Shown here: piece by piece, positions 1,912 to 13,374 of the stretch
How the letters are laid out: each line of letters starts with the position of its first letter
How positions within the stretch are numbered: the stretch's first letter is position 1
Assembly (NCBI GenBank): GCA_039683575.1
Contig: JBDKRC010000296.1
Coordinates: forward strand, 1 to 17,133
DNA from: Armatimonadia bacterium
GTDB lineage: Bacteria > Armatimonadota > Zipacnadia > Zipacnadales > UBA11051
Length of the DNA stretch: 17,133 nt
Reading direction: 5' to 3'
Notes under the pieces: generated by a model
The model's input: the letters and a program-made list of their open reading frames with translations, nothing else
Database searches by the model: none
Told to the model about the DNA's origin: nothing
Program-made: the position numbers and the translations under genes

Positions 1912-4900
1912 CTAGATTGCTTTACGTACAGGACTCCGCCCGTCAAGCGCCTCCCGCAGATACGGTGCCGTCGCCGACCGGTCGCACGCTGCCACCTCTT
2001 CTGGCGGCCCCGCGGCAATCAGCTCCCCTCCGCTATCCCCGCCTCCCGGCCCCAGATCAACCACATAGTCAGCGGCCTTGATGACATCGAGATTGTGCTC
2101 GATTATTATCACCGTGTGCCCGTGATCCACCAGGCGGTTGAGCACCGCCAGAAGCTGCTTCACATCCGCCACATGCAGGCCTGTCGTCGGCTCGTCCAGC
2201 AAGTACAGCGTGTGGTCGCGAACGGGGCGTGAGAGCTCTCGCGCCAGTTTGACGCGCTGCGCCTCGCCCCCCGACAGCGTCGGCGCCGACTGCCCCAGCG
2301 GCAGATAGCCCAGCCCGACCTCACACAAGACCTGCAAGCGCCGGGCCAGGCGCGGGATCGCCGAAAACAGCTCCCGCCCTTCCTCGACGGTCATCTGCAG
2401 GACCTCGGCGATGCTGCGGCCGCGGTACTTCACCTGCAGGGTCTCAGGGTTGTAGCGCTGCCCACCGCACTCCTCGCAAGTCACCCACACATCGGGCAGG
2501 AAGTGCATCTCTACGCACCGGCTGCCCATCCCCTCGCAGGCTTCGCACCGCCCGCCGCGGGCATTGAAGCTGAAGCGGCCGGGCTTGAAGCCCCGCATCT
2601 TTGCCTCCGGCAATGAGGCATACAACTCACGGATGATATCGAAGGCGCCGATATAGCTCACCGGGTTAGAACGCGGGGTTCCCCCGATGGGCGTCTGGTC
2701 AATGCTGATGACCTTATCCACATTTTCCACACCCAGAACCTCGTCATAGGCCCCCGCCGGGCTTACCGCTTCCTCGGTGCCCAGTTGCGAGACCAGCCCA
2801 CGATGGAGAACGTCGTCGATAAGTGTGCTCTTGCCGGAGCCCGAAGGGCCGGTGACGCACGTCAGTACACCTAGGGGAATCGGAACCGTCAGGTTCTTGA
2901 GGTTGTGCTCGCGTGCGCCGAGGATCGTCAGCCAGCACTCCGGGGCGCTGAAGGGCGGCGGCGGCAAGGGGCGGCGCTGTTCGGGCACGGGGATGGTTAG
3001 CTTCCCGGCGAGGAGTTGCCCTGTGACCGAATCCTTCTTCCTCGCCACCTGGGCAGGCGTTCCAGCCGCCACAATCCGCCCGCCGCGCGGCCCCGCGCCG
3101 GGGCCGACATCTATGATGTAGTCCGCCTCGGCGAACGTCTGCGGGTCATGCTCGACCACGACCACGGTGTTGCCTTCGTCGCGAAGCTTCTTGAGAGCCG
3201 CCAGCATCTTGTCATTGTCCGCCGGGTGCACCCCCACCGTCGGCTCGTCGAGTACATACATGACCCCGGTGAGCCCACAGCCCAGTTGCCCCGCGAGTTT
3301 CACCCGCTGAGCCTCGCCGCCCGATAGCGTAGGGGCGGTGCGCGACAGGGTCAGGTAGTCCAGGCCCACCTCGTTGAGGAACTGCAACCGCTGTCTGATC
3401 TCCGGTAGTATCTCCTGAGCCTTCACGCGTTCGCGTGAACTCAATTCCATCGCCCTGAAGAACTCGGCGCACTCCCGCAGCGGCATGTTGCACACGTCCA
3501 GGATCGTCCGCCCACGCAGGCGCACCGCCGCCGCTTCGGCCCGCACCCGCGCGCCATGGCAGTCGGGGCACACGGTGGCGCCGTCCCAGCTTGTCCCCAG
3601 CCCATAGCACGACCGGCACCAGCCCGCGTAGTGGTTGAACGAGAAGCTGCGCGGCGTGATGGGCTCGTAGCTCGCGCCGCAGTTGACGCAGGAGTGCAGC
3701 TTCGAGAAGCGCCGCTCCTGGCCCTCTCCAACCACAATCACCTCATCGCTCATCTTCAGCGCGGCCTCGACCGCCTCAGCCAGTCGCGAGCGGTTGCGGC
3801 TGCCCACGGTCACCCGGTCCACCACAATCTGCACATCATGCTTGCGGCGGCGGCTCATGGCCTTGCCCTCATATGGCAGCCGCACGACCTCGCCATCCAC
3901 CCGCGCCCGCGCCCAACCGTCGCGCTGCGCATACGCGAGCATCGTGCTGTACTCCTCATTCCCATCCGGCACCAGCGGCGCACACAGCAGCACCTGCTGC
4001 CCGTCATTCTCCGCCAGTATCGCGTCCACGATCTGCGAGACGGTCATCGCCCCGACCTCGACCTCGCACTTCGGGCAGTGCGGCTGGCCGAGGCGCGCAA
4101 AGAGCACGCGCAGGTAGTCGTAAATCTCGGTCGTGGTGCCCACGGTCGAGCGCGGCGAATAGCCCCGCCCCGTCTGGTCAACTGCAATCGCCGGCGGCAG
4201 CCCCGCAATCCGGTCCACCTTCGGCTTCTGCATCTGGCCCATGAACATCCGCGCATACGAAGAAAGCGATTCCATAAACCGCCGCTGGCCCTCCGCGTAC
4301 AACGTATCGAGCGCCAGCGAGGTCTTCCCCGAGCCGCTGACGCCGGAGATGACCGTGAGCTTGTGCCGCGGGATCTCAACCTGCACGTTCCTGAGGTTGT
4401 GCTCCCGCGCGCCGCGCACGATCAGCTTGTCGGACTTCCGCGCCTGCTTCACGGGCTTGCGTCCGTGCGCCACGATCCCGGTGCCCAGCACCTCGCGCAG
4501 CAACTCGGCCGTGGGGCTTTGTGACCCTTCCCACACCAACTCCTCGGGCGTCCCCTCCGCCACCACCAGCCCGCCGCCTGCCCCGCCCTCCGGGCCCATG
4601 TCGATGATGTGGTCTGCCGTCTTGATGACGTCCGGATGGTGCTCGACCACGAGCACCGTATGCCCCTCGTCCACAAACCTGTGCAGGACCTCCAGCAGGT
4701 GCCGGACATCCTCGAAATGCAGCCCCGTCGTCGGCTCATCCAGGATGTATAGCGTCCGCCCGGACTTAGGCCGCGCCAGTTCCTTCGCAAGCTTGATTCG
4801 CTGCGCCTCGCCCCCCGACACCGTCGTCGCGGGCTGTCCCAGCCGAATGTAACCCAGCCCCACGTCCACCAGCGTCTGGAGAGTCCGCGCGATGTTCGGG

Positions 4901-7302
4901 ATATTCCCAAAGTGCTTCAGCGCGTCGCCGACTTCCATCTCGAGCACTTCCGCGATGGTCTTGTTCTTGTAGGTGACGTCAAGCGTCTCGCGGTCAAAGC
5001 GCCGGCCCTCACAGATCTCGCACGTAACCCAAACGTCGGCCATGAAGTCGGAGTCGAGCTTGACCGCGCCGTGGCCCTCGCAGGCGCTGCAGCGCCCCTC
5101 CGGGACGTTGAAGGAGAAGCGCCCGGGCTTGTAGCCGCGCGCGAGCGACTCCGGCAGCTTCGCGTACAGGTCGCGGATGTGAGTGAGCACTCCAGTATAG
5201 GTTGCGGGGTTGCTGCGGGGTGTGCGGCCGATGGGGTCCTGGTCTATGAGCACGACCTTGTCGAGATGCTCAAGGCCCACAAGCTCGTCATATTCGCCCG
5301 GCGTAGCCTCCGCGTGCATCAGGTCCCGCGCCAGTGCCGGATAGAGCGTGTCGGTGATCAGCGAACTCTTCCCTGACCCGGACACGCCCGTCACGCACAC
5401 GAACGTATGCAGGGGCAGTGACACTTCCACATCCCGCAGGTTGTTGTGCCGCGCCCCTCGCAGCGTCAGCCGCTCGCCGTTGCCTTCACGCCGCTGCTCA
5501 GGCACGGGGATGCTGCGCTTGCCCGACAGGTACTGCCCGGTGAGCGACTTGCGATTGCGCTTGAGCTGCGCGGGCGTTCCCTCGGCAACCACCCGCCCGC
5601 CGCGTTCCCCTGCCCCGGGGCCGAAGTCCACTACATAGTCCGCCGCCTCGATGGTCTGCTCGTCATGCTCGACCACGATCACGGTGTTTCCCAGGTCCCG
5701 CAGGCGCAGCAGCGAATCCAGGAGCTTCCCCTGGTCGCGGTGGTGCAGGCCAATGCTCGGCTCGTCAAGCACGTACATGACGTCAACGAGCCCGCTACCA
5801 ACCTGGCTCGCAAGCCGGATGCGCTGGGATTCGCCCCCGGAGAGAGACGGTGCGAGGCGGTCGAGGTTGAGGTAGTGCAGCCCCACGTAACTCAGGAATG
5901 ACAGCCGGTCACGAATCTCCTTGAGAGCATCCTCGGCGATCATGAGCTCCGCCGCCGAGAGTTGCAGCCCCTCGAAGAACTCCCGCGCTGCCTCCACATC
6001 CAGCGCCACAACATCCGCGATGGACTTCCCCGCAATAGTGATCGCCAGACTCTCCCGGCGCAGTCGCTGGCCCTTGCAGTCCGGGCACGTCCCGACGCGC
6101 ATGGCGTCCTCAAACTGCTTCAGTATCGTCCGCGCCTTGAGGGTGCTGTAGCGCTCCTCAAGCTCGGCGATGAGCCCGCGCCAGACCTCGGAATGGGTGA
6201 ACTCCCAGTTCGTCCGTGGGTTGTAGTAGCGAAAGTCAATCTTCTCGCTGCCAGAGCCGTACAGCAGCCCCTTAAGCTGCTCCGGCGTCAGGTCGCGCCA
6301 GGGGGTGCTCAGCTTGAAGCCGTAGTGCTTGGCCACGCCCTCGTACCAGTGCCGCCGCCACGCGCTGCGCAACGACTTCATGAGTGGCACCGCGCCCTGC
6401 AGGAGCGACTTCTTGTCGTCGGGCACGAGCAATTCCGGCACGAACTGCCGCTCCTGGCCGAGGCCATTGCAGGTGGGGCACATGCCGCTGGGGGTGTTGA
6501 ACGAGAAGTGCGCATGCGTCGGCTCTTCAAAGCTCAAATCGCAGCGTGGGCAGGCGTAGCTGGAGGAGAGCAGGATGTCCTCGCCCTTCTCACGCGCGAT
6601 GATGACCTTGCCGTCGGCCTGCTTGCACGCCTCGTCCACCGCCTCGGCAACACGTGAGCGAATGCCGGGGCCGATGGTGAGCCGGTCTAGAATCACGCAG
6701 ATGTCGTGGCGGCGATACCGGTCCAGCGCCAGCGGCTCGTCCAGGCGCACGTCCTGCCCGTCAATTCGCGCCCGCAGGTACCCTCGCCGCGCGAGGTCGT
6801 CCAGTTGCTCCTTGAACTCCCCCTTGCGCCCCGTGTAGACCGGCGCCAGGATCTGCACCTTCTCGCCTTCAGGAAGGCTCAGCACGCGCCCGATGATCGT
6901 CTCACGGGTCTGCGAGCCGATCTCGTCGTGACACTCGGGGCAGTGCCTCTTCCCTATCGCTGCATACAGCACCCGCAGGTGGTCATAGATCTCCGTCACC
7001 GTCGCCACAGTCGAGCGAGGATTATGGCTGCGTGCGCCCTGGTCGATGGCGATGGAGGGGGCGAGGCCCTCGATATGCCCGACGGCAGGGCGGCCGAGCT
7101 GTTGGAGGAATTGCCGCGCGTACGTCGAAAGCGACTCGACATAACGCCGCTGGCCCTCCGCAAACAGCGTATCGAAGGCCAGGGATGACTTCCCGGAGCC
7201 GCTGACGCCGGTGAAGACGATCAGCGAGTTCTTGGGTAACTTGAGGTCCACGCCCCGCAGGTTATGCTCGTGGGCGTGGCGGATGATGATCTGGTCGGAC
7301 AA
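1912..7302 (-). CDS. uvrA: Excinuclease ABC subunit A, double-length (two tandem UvrA modules)
   Basis: 1796 aa. Four Walker A motifs (GVSGSGKSS x2, [18 protein letters not shown]), four SGGE signature motifs, repeated AEGQRR and TPRSNP motifs and CxxC zinc modules. TTG start with RBS AGGAG. Confidence 0.95.
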
Positions 7303-9001: not shown

Positions 9002-9652
9002 CTAGTCCAGGCCGCGCTGCAGTTCCGCGTCGATGAAGTACCGCACCAGTTCGATCTGGTTGCGCAGACCCAGCTTGTGCATGGCGTGGGCCCGGTGGGT
9101 TTCGGCGGTGCGGGTGCTGATGAAGAGCCGCTTGCCAATCTCGGCGCTGGTCAGGCCCTGAGCCGCCAGTTGGATGACATCGAACTCACGCGGCGTCAGC
9201 GCGTCCACTCCCGCGCTCTCCTGCCCCTGGCCGTTCCCGAAGGCATCCAGCACCCGTTGCCGCAGGCACGGCGTAAGGTAGCGGTGCCCCGCGGCGACCT
9301 CACGAATCGCCGTCGCAACCTCGTCAGCCTCCGACTCCTTGAGCACGTACGCCGCCGCCCCCGCGCGCAGGGCCTCCAGCACATAGGCATCGCTCTTGTG
9401 CATGGACAGCACGATGATACCGATCTCGGGGAACCGTTCGCGGAGGGTGCGGATCAGCGCGGCACCCGACAGGCCGGGCATGGTGAGGTCGAGCACGATG
9501 AACTGCGGGTGCAGGCTCTCGGCCAGCGTCAGGGCCTGCTCGCCATTCGCCGCCTCCCCGACCACCTCTATGTCAGGCTCATTGTCGAGAAGCAGGCAAA
9601 GCCCATAGCGCACAATCTCATGGTCGTCGGCGCAGATAATCGTGAAACTCAT
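9002..9652 (-). CDS. NarL/FixJ-family response regulator (REC + LuxR HTH)
   Basis: ADDHEIVRYG, phosphoacceptor in IVLDLTMPGLSG, YVLKES, and C-terminal LTPREFDVIQLAAQGLTSAEIGKRLFISTRTAETHR. Start set at ATG 9652 (MSFTII) with GAGG upstream. Confidence 0.92.
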   Translation of the reverse strand: MSFTIICADDHEIVRYGLCLLLDNEPDIEVVGEAANGEQALTLAESLHPQFIVLDLTMPGLSGAALIRTLRERFPEIGIIVLSMHKSDAYVLEALRAGAAAYVLKESEADEVATAIREVAAGHRYLTPCLRQRVLDAFGNGQGQESAGVDALTPREFDVIQLAAQGLTSAEIGKRLFISTRTAETHRAHAMHKLGLRNQIELVRYFIDAELQRGLD

Positions 9653-9763
9653 GGAGAAGCCCTCTAACGAGAAAGTGCACCTCGACAAGCACCTGTTCGG
9701 CATGAACTACCCGAAACCCTTCAAGGGCAGGTAAATTGTGTGTTAGCGTTGAATCCCTAGCGC

Positions 9764-10255
9764 ATGAACCAGGGATGCCTGAAGACTTTCGCACTCGGAC
9801 TGCTCTTGCTCGGAGTCCTGCTGGCGCTGCTCGGAATCGTGTTCCTGCTCGCCCCCGGGCGGGCGGGTACTGGCCTCATCATGCTGCTGATCGGCGGCGC
9901 GATCATCGCCTTCTCAGCCAGCCGTCTCCGCGTGATGAAGAACCTCTCCCCCGAGGGCGTCGAACAACAGCTACAGGCCGCTGCGGCCGCCTCGGGTGGC
10001 GAATTGACGGTCACCGAGGCCGTCGCGCTCACTGCCCTCGAGGACGGCGTGGTGCGCGCGGGCCTTGAGCGGCTCTTGCACAAGGACCTCGTTCGTCTCG
10101 AGCGCCGCGACGGCTCCGACTACTATATCTTCCCCGGCCTCACCGAGACAAAGATGATCAAAAAGTGCCCCTACTGCGGCAATGAGTACCCTCTGAAGCA
10201 AGCTGGCCGGACCTGCCCCTCGTGCGGCGGCAACCTCGAGATACGCCCCGAATAG
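9764..10255 (+). CDS. Hypothetical membrane protein: two TM helices plus C-terminal zinc ribbon
   Basis: Two hydrophobic segments in about the first 50 aa. C-terminal CPYC-x11-CPSC. Coding-like GC3 bias. Confidence 0.8.
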   Translation: MNQGCLKTFALGLLLLGVLLALLGIVFLLAPGRAGTGLIMLLIGGAIIAFSASRLRVMKNLSPEGVEQQLQAAAAASGGELTVTEAVALTALEDGVVRAGLERLLHKDLVRLERRDGSDYYIFPGLTETKMIKKCPYCGNEYPLKQAGRTCPSCGGNLEIRPE

Positions 10256-10296
10256 GCCGCGCGCCCTGAGAATTTCAGATTTCCCGCAGAATTTGA

Positions 10297-10322
10297 GGAA
10301 CATATTCGCGGTTTTGGTGTAA
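10297..10322 (+). promoter_or_regulatory. ECF-sigma-like promoter candidate
   Basis: GGAAC (10297-10301), N16, TGTAA (10318-10322) in an AT-rich intergenic patch, consistent with generic ECF -35 GGAAC / -10 (C/T)GT geometry. Confidence 0.4.
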
Positions 10323-10327
10323 CATAT

Positions 10328-10471
10328 ATGTGCAGCTCGATCAGGGTAAAGCCCGCTCTCAGTAGGGGGATGTTGGCAGCCAACGGCTGCTTAACCCTAC
10401 CGAAAGCAGCCGCTGGACTTTATACGGGTGGACAGGGAACAGCACCCGTTGTCGGTACAGCGGTTTTTTTT
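10328..10471 (+). ncRNA. Candidate structured small RNA or leader RNA with a 5' segment antisense to prepilin (GFTLIEL) coding sequence
   Basis: Follows the ECF-like promoter. 10332-10361 is the reverse complement of TG AGA GCG GGC TTT ACC CTG ATC GAG CTG C. Stems at 10362-10400, 10384-10412 and 10410-10463, then T8 at 10464-10471. Boundaries are inferred. Confidence 0.45.
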
Positions 10472-10508
10472 GCCTGCAGGTTGACCGTCCTTTGAACGGA
10501 GGCATGTC

Positions 10509-12551
10509 ATGACCTGTCGGAATGCTGTGTCCTTTCTTATCTGCCTCGCCGCCGTTTTCTTCCCCACTTCCTCCCCGCTTTTCGCCGCCGGCCACGACGC
10601 CACCATCGTCGTTCACCCCGATCGGGTCACCGGCAGGGTCAACCCCCTCATCTTCGGCAACAACCAGCTCGCCTACCAGGAGCGCCCCGAGTACAGCAAC
10701 CAGGGCGCGGGCATCTGGGACCCGGTTAGGCACGCCCCCGTACCGGAGTATGTCGAGCTCTCCAAGCAGGCCGGCATCACCATCCAGCGCTGGCCCGGCG
10801 GCTGCACTGCGCACAACTACAACTGGAAGAAGACTGTCGGCCCCCTCGCCGAGCGGCCACAGATGCTGTTCGGCCTCCCCGAGTTCATGCGCTACTGCGA
10901 AGACACCGGCGCCCAGGCCCTGATCACCCTCTCCGTCTACTGGGGCAGCGAAGCCGACGCCGCGGACATCGTCGAATACCTCAACCTCCCCGTGGGCAAG
11001 AACCCCAACGGCGGTCCTGACTGGGCCGCCGTCCGTGCCGCCGATGGCCACCCGCAGCCATACAACGTGATCTACTTCGAGTATGGCAACGAGGACTACC
11101 ACGGCGAGCACAAGACCAAAGACAACCCCAACCCGCGCAAAATCACCCCCGAAGACTACGCCCGCCAGTACCTCGCCTATCAGCAGGCCATGAAGGCCCT
11201 CGATCCCCGCATTCGCCTCGGCGGGCTGCTGCAGTACGGTCTCTGGGACTGGAACAAGGCCGTCTTGCAGGGCTGCGGCAAGCAAATGGACTTCGGCATC
11301 GAGCACACCTACACTCCCGGCTTCCAGGGCGACACGGACGAGACCAGGGGCCGTCTCTACATGCGCGCCTGCGCGGCCTCGGATCTGCACATCCAGCGCA
11401 TCTATGACAAGCTGCACGCCCAGATCAAGGAAGTCTGCGGGCGGGACGACATGCAGCTTGCCATAACCGAGTACAACGGCTGGTTCGTGCAGGAGAAGCC
11501 TGTCCCGTATCGCCAGGCCTTTGCCAACGCCCTGCGCAACGCCGAGCACCTGCGCGTGATGATGCGCCCCGAGAACCGCATCCTCATGGGCAACTTCTGG
11601 GAGTTCGCGAACGAGTACTGGGGGATGGTGAAAGGCTTCGTGGACCGGGGCCAGACGCCGGTTAGGCAGGCCAACTACTTCCCGTACCAGATGTATCACG
11701 AGCACTTCGGCGACACGCTGGTGGCCTGCGACGTCCAGTGCGGCACCTGGGACTTCCCCGGCGGCCCGCTTCCCGCGCGCCAGGGCACGCCCAGTACCTT
11801 CAAGCTCTTCGATGAGAACCTGCTGCCGAAGGATTACGTGTGGGAGCCCCGTCAGCCCGAGCAGGGGGCCACGCAGAAGATCGAGGGGCAGGTCGTGGCG
11901 GTGGAGTTCTCCGGCAATGACGTGAACTACTATTCAGCTCGCACCACCCTACCCGCCGAGGGCGGCATGGGCTATCGTGTGACCGGCTCCATCAAGACCG
12001 AGGGCATCACCGACGCGCATGGCCTCGGCTTCCAGGTCGGCGACGCTCGCGGCTGGACCGAGACCAAGTCCTGCCAACTCGGCGGCAGCGTTAGCGGCAC
12101 GAAGGACTGGCAGAAGGTCGAGATCGAGTACACAACGCTGCCGGACGCCACGCAGATCGAGATCCTCGCCCGCCGCCTCGGCGGCACGGGCAACATCTCC
12201 GGCAAGGGCTGGTGGCGGCTCGACAGCGTCCAGAAGTTCCGCCCGGAGAACAGCGGAGCGGTCCCGGACCTGGGCGTCAACACCGCCCGGCGCGCCGACG
12301 GCACCATCACGCTGATGATCGTGAACAAAAACTTCGACGAGGCAGTGCCGGTGCGGATCGAGGTCGAGAAGGGGAAGCCACAGGCGGGGAAGGCGCGGGC
12401 CTGGCTGCTGACGGGGCCGTCACCCGAGGCCAACAATCTCAAGCAGCCGGATAACATCAAGCTGACCGAGGAGCCAGTGGCAGTGCGCGACGGGGCCTAT
12501 TGGCTGACGCTGCCGGGGTGTTCGATGGCGGCGGTGGAAATCGCACCCTGA
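10509..12551 (+). CDS. Secreted clan GH-A glycoside hydrolase, GH51 (alpha-L-arabinofuranosidase)-like, with an inserted CBM4/9-like domain
   Basis: Signal-peptide-like N-terminus. VNPLIFGNN, QRWPGGC, YFEYGNE (acid/base) and AITEYN (nucleophile). Beta-sandwich segment YRVTGSIKTEG...GTKDWQKVEIEYTT. C-terminus TLPGCSMAAVEI. RBS GGAGG at 10498-10502. Confidence 0.8.
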   Translation: MTCRNAVSFLICLAAVFFPTSSPLFAAGHDATIVVHPDRVTGRVNPLIFGNNQLAYQERPEYSNQGAGIWDPVRHAPVPEYVELSKQAGITIQRWPGGCTAHNYNWKKTVGPLAERPQMLFGLPEFMRYCEDTGAQALITLSVYWGSEADAADIVEYLNLPVGKNPNGGPDWAAVRAADGHPQPYNVIYFEYGNEDYHGEHKTKDNPNPRKITPEDYARQYLAYQQAMKALDPRIRLGGLLQYGLWDWNKAVLQGCGKQMDFGIEHTYTPGFQGDTDETRGRLYMRACAASDLHIQRIYDKLHAQIKEVCGRDDMQLAITEYNGWFVQEKPVPYRQAFANALRNAEHLRVMMRPENRILMGNFWEFANEYWGMVKGFVDRGQTPVRQANYFPYQMYHEHFGDTLVACDVQCGTWDFPGGPLPARQGTPSTFKLFDENLLPKDYVWEPRQPEQGATQKIEGQVVAVEFSGNDVNYYSARTTLPAEGGMGYRVTGSIKTEGITDAHGLGFQVGDARGWTETKSCQLGGSVSGTKDWQKVEIEYTTLPDATQIEILARRLGGTGNISGKGWWRLDSVQKFRPENSGAVPDLGVNTARRADGTITLMIVNKNFDEAVPVRIEVEKGKPQAGKARAWLLTGPSPEANNLKQPDNIKLTEEPVAVRDGAYWLTLPGCSMAAVEIAP

Positions 12552-12705: not shown

Positions 12706-13374
12706 CTAGGGCCCATTGCAGCCCCACGGCTCGGGGTCTCTCGCCAACGTTGCTGCCTTGAACCACTTGGCGTGGCCGTCGAGGAAGGCGACGTTGCCGC
12801 CCTCGTTGTGCCGGCCCATGTACGTCCAGTCATAGGCGGGTTCCGTTCCACTGCTCAGGTTGCGGGTCAGCGCCGTATAGCCTGCGCAACTGGTGCCGCC
12901 CGGATGCCAGTAGCAGTACCAGGTGTTGGCATCAACCAGCATCATAAGCTTCGCGGGACTGGTAAAGACGGCCAGCGCGTTCCCACCACCGCCATTGCGG
13001 TCTATCCAAACATACCACGTGTGGTTGGTCATCGGGGCCGCATAGCTGCAAGCATCGGGCGACGTCTGGTCGGCAATCGAGTGGCTGGGACAGAAACGGA
13101 CCTGCTTGTTCTTCAGATACGGCTCGCAGGCGTCGAACCAGCGAACGCGAGCGGGAGGGGCGCCGCCGGGCCCAACCCACGCCGCGGGCATTCTCTCATC
13201 ATAGTCCTGGGTATACTGCATTACCCCCAGGCTCAACTGCTTGATGTTGGACAGACAACTGGCCTGTCGCGCCTTCTCACGAGCCTTGGCAAAGACCGGA
13301 AACAGAATCGCTGCCAGAATCGCAATGATGGCGATAACCACGAGAAGTTCAATAAGCGTGAATCCTCGGCGCAT
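12706..13374 (-). CDS. Prepilin-type N-terminal cleavage/methylation domain protein, DUF1559 / H-X9-DG family
   Basis: [47 protein letters not shown] and C-terminal [16 protein letters not shown] (H-X9-DG). RBS GGAGG. Confidence 0.93.

Follow-up and report, generated by a model that had tools for sequence, protein, structure and literature searches.

An intergenic gap of 253 nucleotides (nt; 10256-10508) in the genome of an Armatimonadia bacterium contains a conserved, structured RNA gene. We propose that this gene probably encodes a trans-acting small RNA (sRNA) of ~142 nt (~10330-10471, plus strand) that depends on an extracytoplasmic function (ECF) sigma factor and represses many prepilin/DUF1559 mRNAs. 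The stretch analyzed, here called the window, comprises 17,133 nt of contig JBDKRC010000296.1 (assembly GCA_039683575.1), and coordinates are positions in it unless another contig or locus is named. A first-pass annotation of this DNA had described a candidate RNA whose 5' end is antisense to the conserved start of prepilin genes, and had suggested that it acts either as a family-wide antisense regulator or as a guide for an effector encoded elsewhere. The parts of the gene are:

10297-10301, plus strand: -35 element GGAAC of the ECF-sigma-type promoter, identified in the sequence and conserved in relatives
10318-10322, plus strand: -10 element TGTAA (YGTWA in relatives), after a 16-nt spacer
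10328-10332, plus strand: predicted transcription start, placed by its distance to the -10 element
10332-10353, plus strand: 5' seed GCAGCTCGATCAGGGTAAAGCC, antisense to prepilin/DUF1559-type G-F-T-L-I-E-L codons
10355-10367 with 10395-10407, plus strand: helix P1 of the RNAalifold consensus, enclosing P1b
10375-10381 with 10385-10391, plus strand: hairpin P1b of the RNAalifold consensus, inside P1
10408-10416 with 10457-10465, plus strand: helix P2 of the RNAalifold consensus, the terminator stem, enclosing hairpin P3
10424-10430 with 10443-10449, plus strand: hairpin P3 of the RNAalifold consensus, with a 12-nt loop
10435-10442, plus strand: near-invariant loop motif GGGAACAG, antisense to CTG TTC CC (L-F-P codons)
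10464-10471, plus strand: T8 tract, the U-tail of a Rho-independent terminator, found in the sequence and by terminator scan

The GGAAC-N16-TGTAA promoter, the antisense G-F-T-L-I-E-L stretch, the stems and the T8 tract of the first-pass annotation were all located where it had placed them, and the terminator scan reported a stem at 10446-10463 just before T8. The reverse complement of 10332-10353 (plus strand) reads exactly GGC TTT ACC CTG ATC GAG CTG C (G-F-T-L-I-E-L). In the minus-strand frame over the seed, RAGFTLIEL continues into HIYVTPKPR and the hydrophobic helix is absent, in keeping with the earlier observation that the similarity to pilin ends abruptly. Folding of 10325-10475 yielded -58.5 kcal/mol (z = -2.64; 2 of 200 shuffles folded equally well), with the seed located in the unpaired 5' end of the predicted fold. 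The RNA belongs to no family described in Rfam: a search of the whole window against Rfam 15 at gathering thresholds gave no match, and a search of 10200-10560 at E values up to 10 returned only a minus-strand AdoCbl-II match of 13.1 bits (threshold 36.5), attributable to chance.

The element is widespread among relatives. BLASTN located it in each of the genus's three further genomes, at 77-85% identity, and at 70% in another genus. With a covariance model derived from five sequences (R1), 15 of the family's 16 genomes each yielded a single full-length copy; the remaining genome is 66% complete. A model from 15 sequences (R2), run under stricter Infernal filters, matched 38 of 67 genomes of the order and all 7 of its families. 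A third model, from 44 sequences (R3), matched 15 of 151 genomes sampled across the phylum; 14 of these matches are real and include three further families, and one (in G126) was discarded as false, as it falls on a real prepilin gene. Finally, we ran a gapped pattern over one genome each of ~186,000 species; this pattern detects only copies with the present seed variant and loop, and its 24 matches therefore understate the range. The covariance model confirmed 16 of them, in 14 entries titled Armatimonadia, Armatimonadota or Candidatus Zipacnadia, one titled "bacterium" and one from candidate division WS1. None of the 8 matches in other named phyla was confirmed, and their number is close to a rough chance estimate. 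Most genomes carry a single copy. In alignments A1 to A4, sequence conservation begins at ~10328-10332; the seed core is invariant in the 5 closest genomes, and a tract of seven or eight T residues is kept in all 15 family copies.

Covariation supports the predicted structure. In an alignment of the 15 family copies, which was fitted to the model's structure and is thus biased toward it, 93.5% of cells were paired and 27 of 35 pairs had changed on both sides (8 of 12 in helix 1, 6 of 7 in helix 2, 8 of 9 in P2 and 5 of 7 in P3). None of 500 shuffles reached the observed pairing and covariation values, and slid controls paired at 36-56%. An independent MAFFT alignment of five sequences, analyzed with RNAalifold, contained compensatory changes at 10 of 42 pairs. 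The hairpin enclosed by P1 is variable. The first-pass annotation had looked to conservation of promoter, seed, stems and U-tract, with covariation, for support of an RNA, and to an intact minus-strand prepilin gene in relatives as the sign of a pseudogene scar. All four parts are conserved far past the genus, with compensatory base-pair changes, and none of the relatives carries an intact minus-strand prepilin gene at this locus. The element is a conserved structured RNA gene and not a pseudogene scar.

A GGAAC element, a spacer of ~16 nt and a CGT-type -10 element make up the consensus of ECF sigma promoters. GGAAC is present in 14 of the 15 family copies, with (C/T)GT(T/A) 16-17 nt further on; in relatives the -10 element reads CGTT, CGTC or GGTA at unchanged spacing. 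The broader motif G[GA]AAC-N15-18-[CTG]GT[ATC] precedes 39 of the 55 copies, compared to 0.8% of random 70-nt genome windows, and its end lies mostly 8-13 nt (range 3-15) before the first position of the model. This position would put the transcription start at ~10328-10332 and hence the seed at the very 5' end of the RNA. From the conserved motif we infer that the gene is transcribed by an ECF-type sigma factor. At the level of motifs it is an independent transcription unit, with its own promoter, a stem followed by T7-8, and neighbors that are convergent with it or unlinked.

Contigs from three metatranscriptome runs of a single study and from one further run of unspecified kind cover the region at 95-100% identity; these RNA-library data are assembled contigs, without strand, transcript ends or expression level. 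The contigs span 10345-10612 (X1), 10344 to beyond 10800 (X2), 10268-10430 (X3) and 10169-10561 (X11). The starts at 10344 and 10345, inside the seed, were considered as the 5' end of the RNA and rejected, since a repeat would break the assembly graph there. The genome also contains a match to Hfq (PF17209, 59.3 bits) in an 81-amino-acid open frame on contig C27.

Taking F[TS]L[IVL]E[LVM] with a hydrophobic helix after it as the signature of a prepilin-type N-terminus, we counted 161 intact examples in the genome of the window (6.23 Mb, 352 contigs, 63.5% G+C). The locus at 10332-10353 is the only truncated copy of the motif away from contig ends, and the match of the seed to the prepilin motif is not a chance resemblance. 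For 120 of the 161 genes the start codon is 4 or 5 codons upstream of the Phe codon, so the seed duplex would span ~+10 to +34 of the coding sequence. Extended complementarity between seed and prepilin mRNAs, on which the antisense proposal had depended, exists for most of them: with G:U pairs allowed, 151 of 161 pair at 18 or more of the 22 positions, although enrichment of the family is in part to be expected, as its likeness to prepilin genes is what drew attention to the seed, and the counts given here show breadth rather than discovery. Genome-wide, 141 sites reach at least 19 of 22 pairs; 117 are prepilin N-termini, and the rest include the RNA's own locus and several prepilin genes at contig ends. 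The median seed duplex energy was -25.8 kcal/mol compared to -15.7 kcal/mol for random genomic 60-mers, with 100 of 161 genes past the 1% tail of this background and 133 past the 5% tail.

The seed is constrained along the reading frame of its targets. Across 42 copies (those in genomes G058 and G065 were excluded on account of their unrelated 5' ends), mean column entropy was 1.21 at positions facing third codon positions and 0.73 and 0.45 at the others. The signal had a permutation p of 0.017, and both shifted frames gave negative differences. Most of the remaining variation lies opposite the first base of Leu codons, where changes are also synonymous. In two genomes an A-to-G change opposite the second base of a Leu codon turns Leu into Pro on the minus strand; in the duplex it replaces A:U with G:U. 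When the seeds of all lineages were compared on the genes of the window's genome, that of its own genus performed best (117 of 161; next best, 103), and the actual seed covered more of the family than did 94% of the 16,384 variants that its seven wobble-facing positions allow.

A second part of the RNA matches the same genes. The loop motif GGGAACAG is the most conserved part of the scaffold and is kept in nearly all copies. Its reverse complement, CTG TTC CC, is the commonest series of L-F-P codons in the prepilin-like family (CTG in 80, TTC in 121 and CCN in 159 of 161 genes). An exact CTGTTCCC is found 57 nt past the Phe codon in 57 of the 161 genes, and the 8-mer complementary to the loop occurs 271 times genome-wide on both strands. 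Of all 7-mers in the RNA, GGGAACA and GGAACAG have the most Watson-Crick complements in the 5' regions of the family (73 and 58 of 161 genes), the next, at 32, lying inside the seed; counts allowing G:U were too noisy, and the Watson-Crick counts alone are informative. Loop duplexes passed the 1% tail in 78 genes and the 5% tail in 105, and both sites passed the 5% tail in 89 of 161. Five copies have the loop GGGAAG, a C-to-G change opposite the third base of the Leu codon, and in the compact form of family f10 P3 is lost and the motif is carried in the terminator loop. On the mRNA, the site facing the 5' seed is upstream of the site facing the 3' loop, the opposite of the order expected of a colinear antisense remnant of a prepilin gene. 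Based on this complementarity, we propose that the GGGAACAG loop is a second pairing site on prepilin-like mRNAs, a candidate antisense site against L-F-P codons that goes beyond the first-pass annotation.

In the mechanism that we envisage, an ECF-type sigma factor would transcribe the RNA from GGAAC-N16-TGTAA. Its single-stranded 5' end (10332-10353) would pair with the G-F-T-L-I-E-L codons, partly within the initiation footprint of the ribosome, and the GGGAACAG loop would bind the L-F-P codons, ~57 nt further along the mRNA. Base pairing inside the first ~five codons, as Bouvier et al. reportedly found in 2008, blocks initiation. Pairing of the RNA could thus block translation initiation, trigger decay, or both, on many of the ~160 prepilin/DUF1559-type mRNAs at once. 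Such repression would lower the membrane load of proteins with class III signal peptides under the stress that activates the sigma factor, and Hfq, whose gene is present, may assist the RNA.

The sequence also offers a hint of how the gene arose. The -35 element in its extended form, GGAACA, resembles the antisense of L-F-P codons, and it lies 34 nt upstream of the Leu-Leu antisense here, compared to ~43 nt in a prepilin gene turned around. The RNA may descend from the 5' part of a family member that became inverted, its promoter carved from L-F-P codons. In its fullest form our proposal describes a bacterial sRNA resembling plant miR482, stress-induced and conserved across Armatimonadota, that reads two motif-coding sites, throttles more than 100 pilin-like proteins and was born from an inverted fragment of its target; we advance this fuller version tentatively.

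The genomic setting of the RNA changes between relatives. The first-pass annotation had expected conservation independent of neighboring genes, and this held for the window's own neighbors, the proteins of which are absent from the loci of relatives. It did not hold for an MFS_1 transporter gene (~450 amino acids), which in 19 genomes, from four families, is convergent with the RNA, the two 3' ends facing each other (loci L034, L036, L039-L048, L060, L079, L084 and L090-L093). In an all-versus-all comparison of open reading frames within 1.5 kb of the RNA at 51 loci, no other family recurred. The place beside the MFS_1 gene is probably ancestral. The orthologue in the window's genome is on contig C100 (2910-4187), and the element is retained without the MFS gene in G000, G001 and G004. 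The convergent arrangement fits an independent gene with a shared terminator region and not a leader or a product of a 3' untranslated region. In the window, the surroundings of the RNA are:

9764-10255, plus strand: gene for a zinc-ribbon protein of 163 amino acids, the upstream flank of the gap
10509-12551, plus strand: 680-amino-acid gene with arabinofuranosidase domains, the downstream flank of the gap
12706-13374, minus strand: prepilin-type DUF1559 gene (Pfam N_methyl and DUF1559/SBP_bac_10), the sole member of the putative target family in the window
10171-10383, minus strand: open reading frame from the list supplied with the sequence, spanning the prepilin motif

Further upstream, a response regulator of the LuxR/GerE type (9002-9703, minus strand) lies just before the zinc-ribbon gene. 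A 1796-amino-acid open reading frame (1912-7302, minus strand) matches UvrA interaction, UvrA DNA-binding and ABC domains, together with a large number of overlapping P-loop NTPase families, STAND-type models among them. At about double the length of what we take to be the standard UvrA, it may be a duplicated or fused UvrA-like protein.

The prepilin-like genes of this genome are also the site of repeated insertions. At 19 contig ends such a gene is broken at one position of the V-V-I-A-I-I coding stretch (...ATCAT | GTAGCCGCTGAA...). The 5' halves are at the ends of contigs C14, C40, C180, C237, C277, C278, C286, C298, C335 and C337, and the 3' halves at those of C91, C150, C169, C228, C243, C300, C301, C339 and C341. 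The breakpoints continue into one of two 100%-identical repeats (type A, 9 ends; type B, 10 ends). The pattern suggests a mobile element with short inverted ends, present in about ten copies and inserted site-specifically and in either orientation into the conserved N-terminal coding sequence of the family. No transposase was found for the element.

Several observations weigh against a family-wide repressor. The DUF1559 gene in the window forms a seed duplex of -22.6 kcal/mol, no better than shuffles (mean -21.3); its loop duplex, at 13306-13293, reaches -15.1 compared to a shuffled mean of -10.9. The seed does not appear to track the genes of each lineage. All four seeds of family f7 read G-F-S-L-I-E-L, and f7's own genes read G-F-T: these genomes have 26-49 Thr-pattern sites each, and the Ser pattern occurs only at the sRNA loci and one other site. 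We had considered this Ser-for-Thr exchange as covariation between seed and family and rejected it, as the position is a mismatch to f7's own genes. Likewise, the g1 seed fits the g4 gene pool at least as well as the g4 seed; with an 18-nt core and at most one mismatch, the g4 pattern finds 1, 3 and 6 sites in three g4 genomes and the g1 pattern 4, 16 and 13, and no lineage-specific tuning was seen for g4. Even in the window's genome, coverage of 117 of 161 corresponds to the 80th percentile of perfect-antisense seeds made from random family members, a level that simple descent from one of the family's genes could produce. In G058 and G065 the 5' end of the copy bears no relation to the prepilin motif, possibly the result of a seed swap to other targets, and the copies of family f6 are without the GGGAACAG hairpin. 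Prepilin-coding sites were found in all 151 sampled genomes of the phylum, and these include large families without the RNA, which is thus not needed for such families. Lastly, one RNA-library contig starts at 10268, ~60 nt before the predicted start, and two continue past the terminator, one to 10612 and the other beyond 10800; such contigs could stem from carried-over DNA or read-through.

The number of motif-coding sites per genome ranged from 3 to 165 in the same sample, the window's genome being the highest. Carriers of the RNA tended toward more sites (10-165), several non-carriers had 76-132, and related genomes are not independent. Given the kinship among genomes, we do not claim a link between the RNA and family size.

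Two kinds of variant copy were seen. The copies with unrelated 5' ends, L079:1001-1141 in G058 and L082:98-237 in G065 (both minus strand), have kept the scaffold and terminator; an ECF-type promoter motif stands upstream of the former and none was found upstream of the latter. Tandem pairs of a divergent subtype occur on the plus strand in G034 (L072:1006-1144 and 1261-1400) and G038 (L075:1001-1140 and 1267-1406). This subtype has a seed ending ...CAACTCAATCAAGGTGAAGCC, mostly the loop GGGAAGAG, and no GGAAC promoter motif. G034 holds the tandem subtype plus a standard copy elsewhere in its genome.

We weighed four other explanations against these data. That the locus is a decayed prepilin pseudogene fragment or a small minus-strand open reading frame, with no RNA function, is hardly credible. 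Seven prepilin-motif codons are readable on the minus strand and the listed frame at 10171-10383 covers them, yet among the 44 copies many have stop codons beside the motif, none has a hydrophobic helix and two change Leu to Pro, whereas the structure that covaries and the conserved promoter and terminator are on the plus strand. A cis element would also account for some of the observations, either as a bidirectional terminator or 3' structure of the convergent MFS gene, the 3' end of which faces that of the RNA in 19 genomes, or as a leader of the arabinofuranosidase-like gene, into which the RNA-library contigs continue. However, the MFS orthologue of this genome is on another contig, three genomes have kept the element without it, the window's neighbors are absent at the loci of relatives, and a conserved promoter, 5' seed and P1 domain would be superfluous in a terminator; we regard a cis role as highly improbable. 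A guide RNA directing a protein effector to prepilin-family DNA or RNA, the other suggestion of the first-pass annotation, would have the layout seen here, a 5' guide of ~22 nt followed by a structured scaffold, and the mobile element inserted about ten times in the same coding stretch indicates that this region is recognized, although no link between that element and the RNA was found. This suggestion fared poorly. No conserved partner gene lies within 1.5 kb at the 51 loci, where the convergent MFS transporter alone recurs; most genomes have just one copy of the RNA, which carries a stress-type promoter and a U-tail terminator of its own in a genome with Hfq and matches no guide-RNA family in Rfam. 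We consider a guide function very unlikely.

A conserved sRNA with a different role, for example one that binds or titrates a protein by means of its GGGAACAG loop or acts on a few unrelated targets, would leave the seed mainly as a relic of its birth. Several of the observations above are what this would predict: the seed is not tuned to the gene pool of each lineage, as seen for g4 and in the comparison with random family members; f7 seeds mismatch all of f7's own genes; two copies have different 5' ends; a protein-binding site would likewise appear as an invariant loop; and the resemblance of the -35 GGAACA to L-F-P antisense may reflect an origin from a prepilin fragment. A relic would decay, however, and positions facing first and second codon bases are fixed across seven families and beyond while those facing wobble bases drift. 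In addition, the RNA is complementary at two separate places to two conserved stretches of a single gene family, and the seed lies in the unpaired 5' end. A different role is thus unlikely, and we favor repression of many prepilin/DUF1559 mRNAs. The antisense proposal of the first-pass annotation gains support from conservation, covariation, promoter and target complementarity; repression is what these would imply.

Genomes of Armatimonadota and neighboring groups have tens to hundreds of prepilin/DUF1559-type genes each, and we know of nothing reported on how these families are controlled. If our reading is correct, the RNA would be the first regulator proposed for the prepilin/DUF1559 family and, as far as our literature searches show, the first sRNA family described for the phylum. 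It would amount to a post-transcriptional master switch over a whole paralogous secretome and, to our knowledge, to the first bacterial case of a gene family targeted through the codons of its conserved motif, a logic known from plant microRNAs. It would also connect the pilin-like secretome to an ECF sigma factor in a way that can be tested directly. Our searches, with supplementary files outside their scope, found only cis-antisense pilin RNAs, no account of an RNA like the present one and no paper joining DUF1559 with an sRNA.

In the parts of the literature consulted, those RNAs are PilR of Synechocystis (PMC5924778) and an antisense RNA to pilE of Neisseria meningitidis (PMC4402397), both of which lower pilin expression. 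They share with our RNA that it is antisense to a (pre)pilin gene, with repression proposed here; unlike them, each encoded on the strand opposite its single target, it is encoded elsewhere and matches a family through ~22 + 8 nt. The closest working analogy in bacteria may be the sigmaE-dependent envelope-stress sRNAs of Proteobacteria, among them RybB, MicA, MicL and the Vibrio sRNAs MicV/VrrA, together with FoxI/FoxJ of Fusobacterium (PMC4102768, PMC6694218, PMC9546586, PMC11005410). As these sources describe them in the portions used, sigmaE-dependent sRNAs shut down outer-membrane protein synthesis under envelope stress. Common to them and our RNA are an ECF-type promoter, a conserved 5' seed, a Rho-independent terminator with a long U-tail and a genome-encoded Hfq, together with the logic, proposed here, of stress reducing the output of an entire class of abundant envelope proteins. 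By contrast, the present RNA has no sequence or structural homology to them, as judged by Rfam, and comes from a different phylum. Its seed reads the motif-coding stretch of ~160 paralogues where theirs, in the same portions, pair with unrelated sites in different mRNAs, and it possibly has a second site in its loop. They would be functional analogues at most. In target logic the nearest parallel appears to be plant miR482/2118, which targets the P-loop codons of the NBS-LRR family and varies opposite third codon positions (PMC5026261, as far as the part used goes). The one is a eukaryotic 22-nt microRNA acting with Argonaute and the other a bacterial sRNA of ~142 nt with its own scaffold, so that the likeness is in logic only and implies no evolutionary relationship. 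In both, a single small RNA is complementary to the codons of a conserved motif and hence to a very large paralogous family, and in both the diversity of the small RNA faces the third codon positions of its targets.

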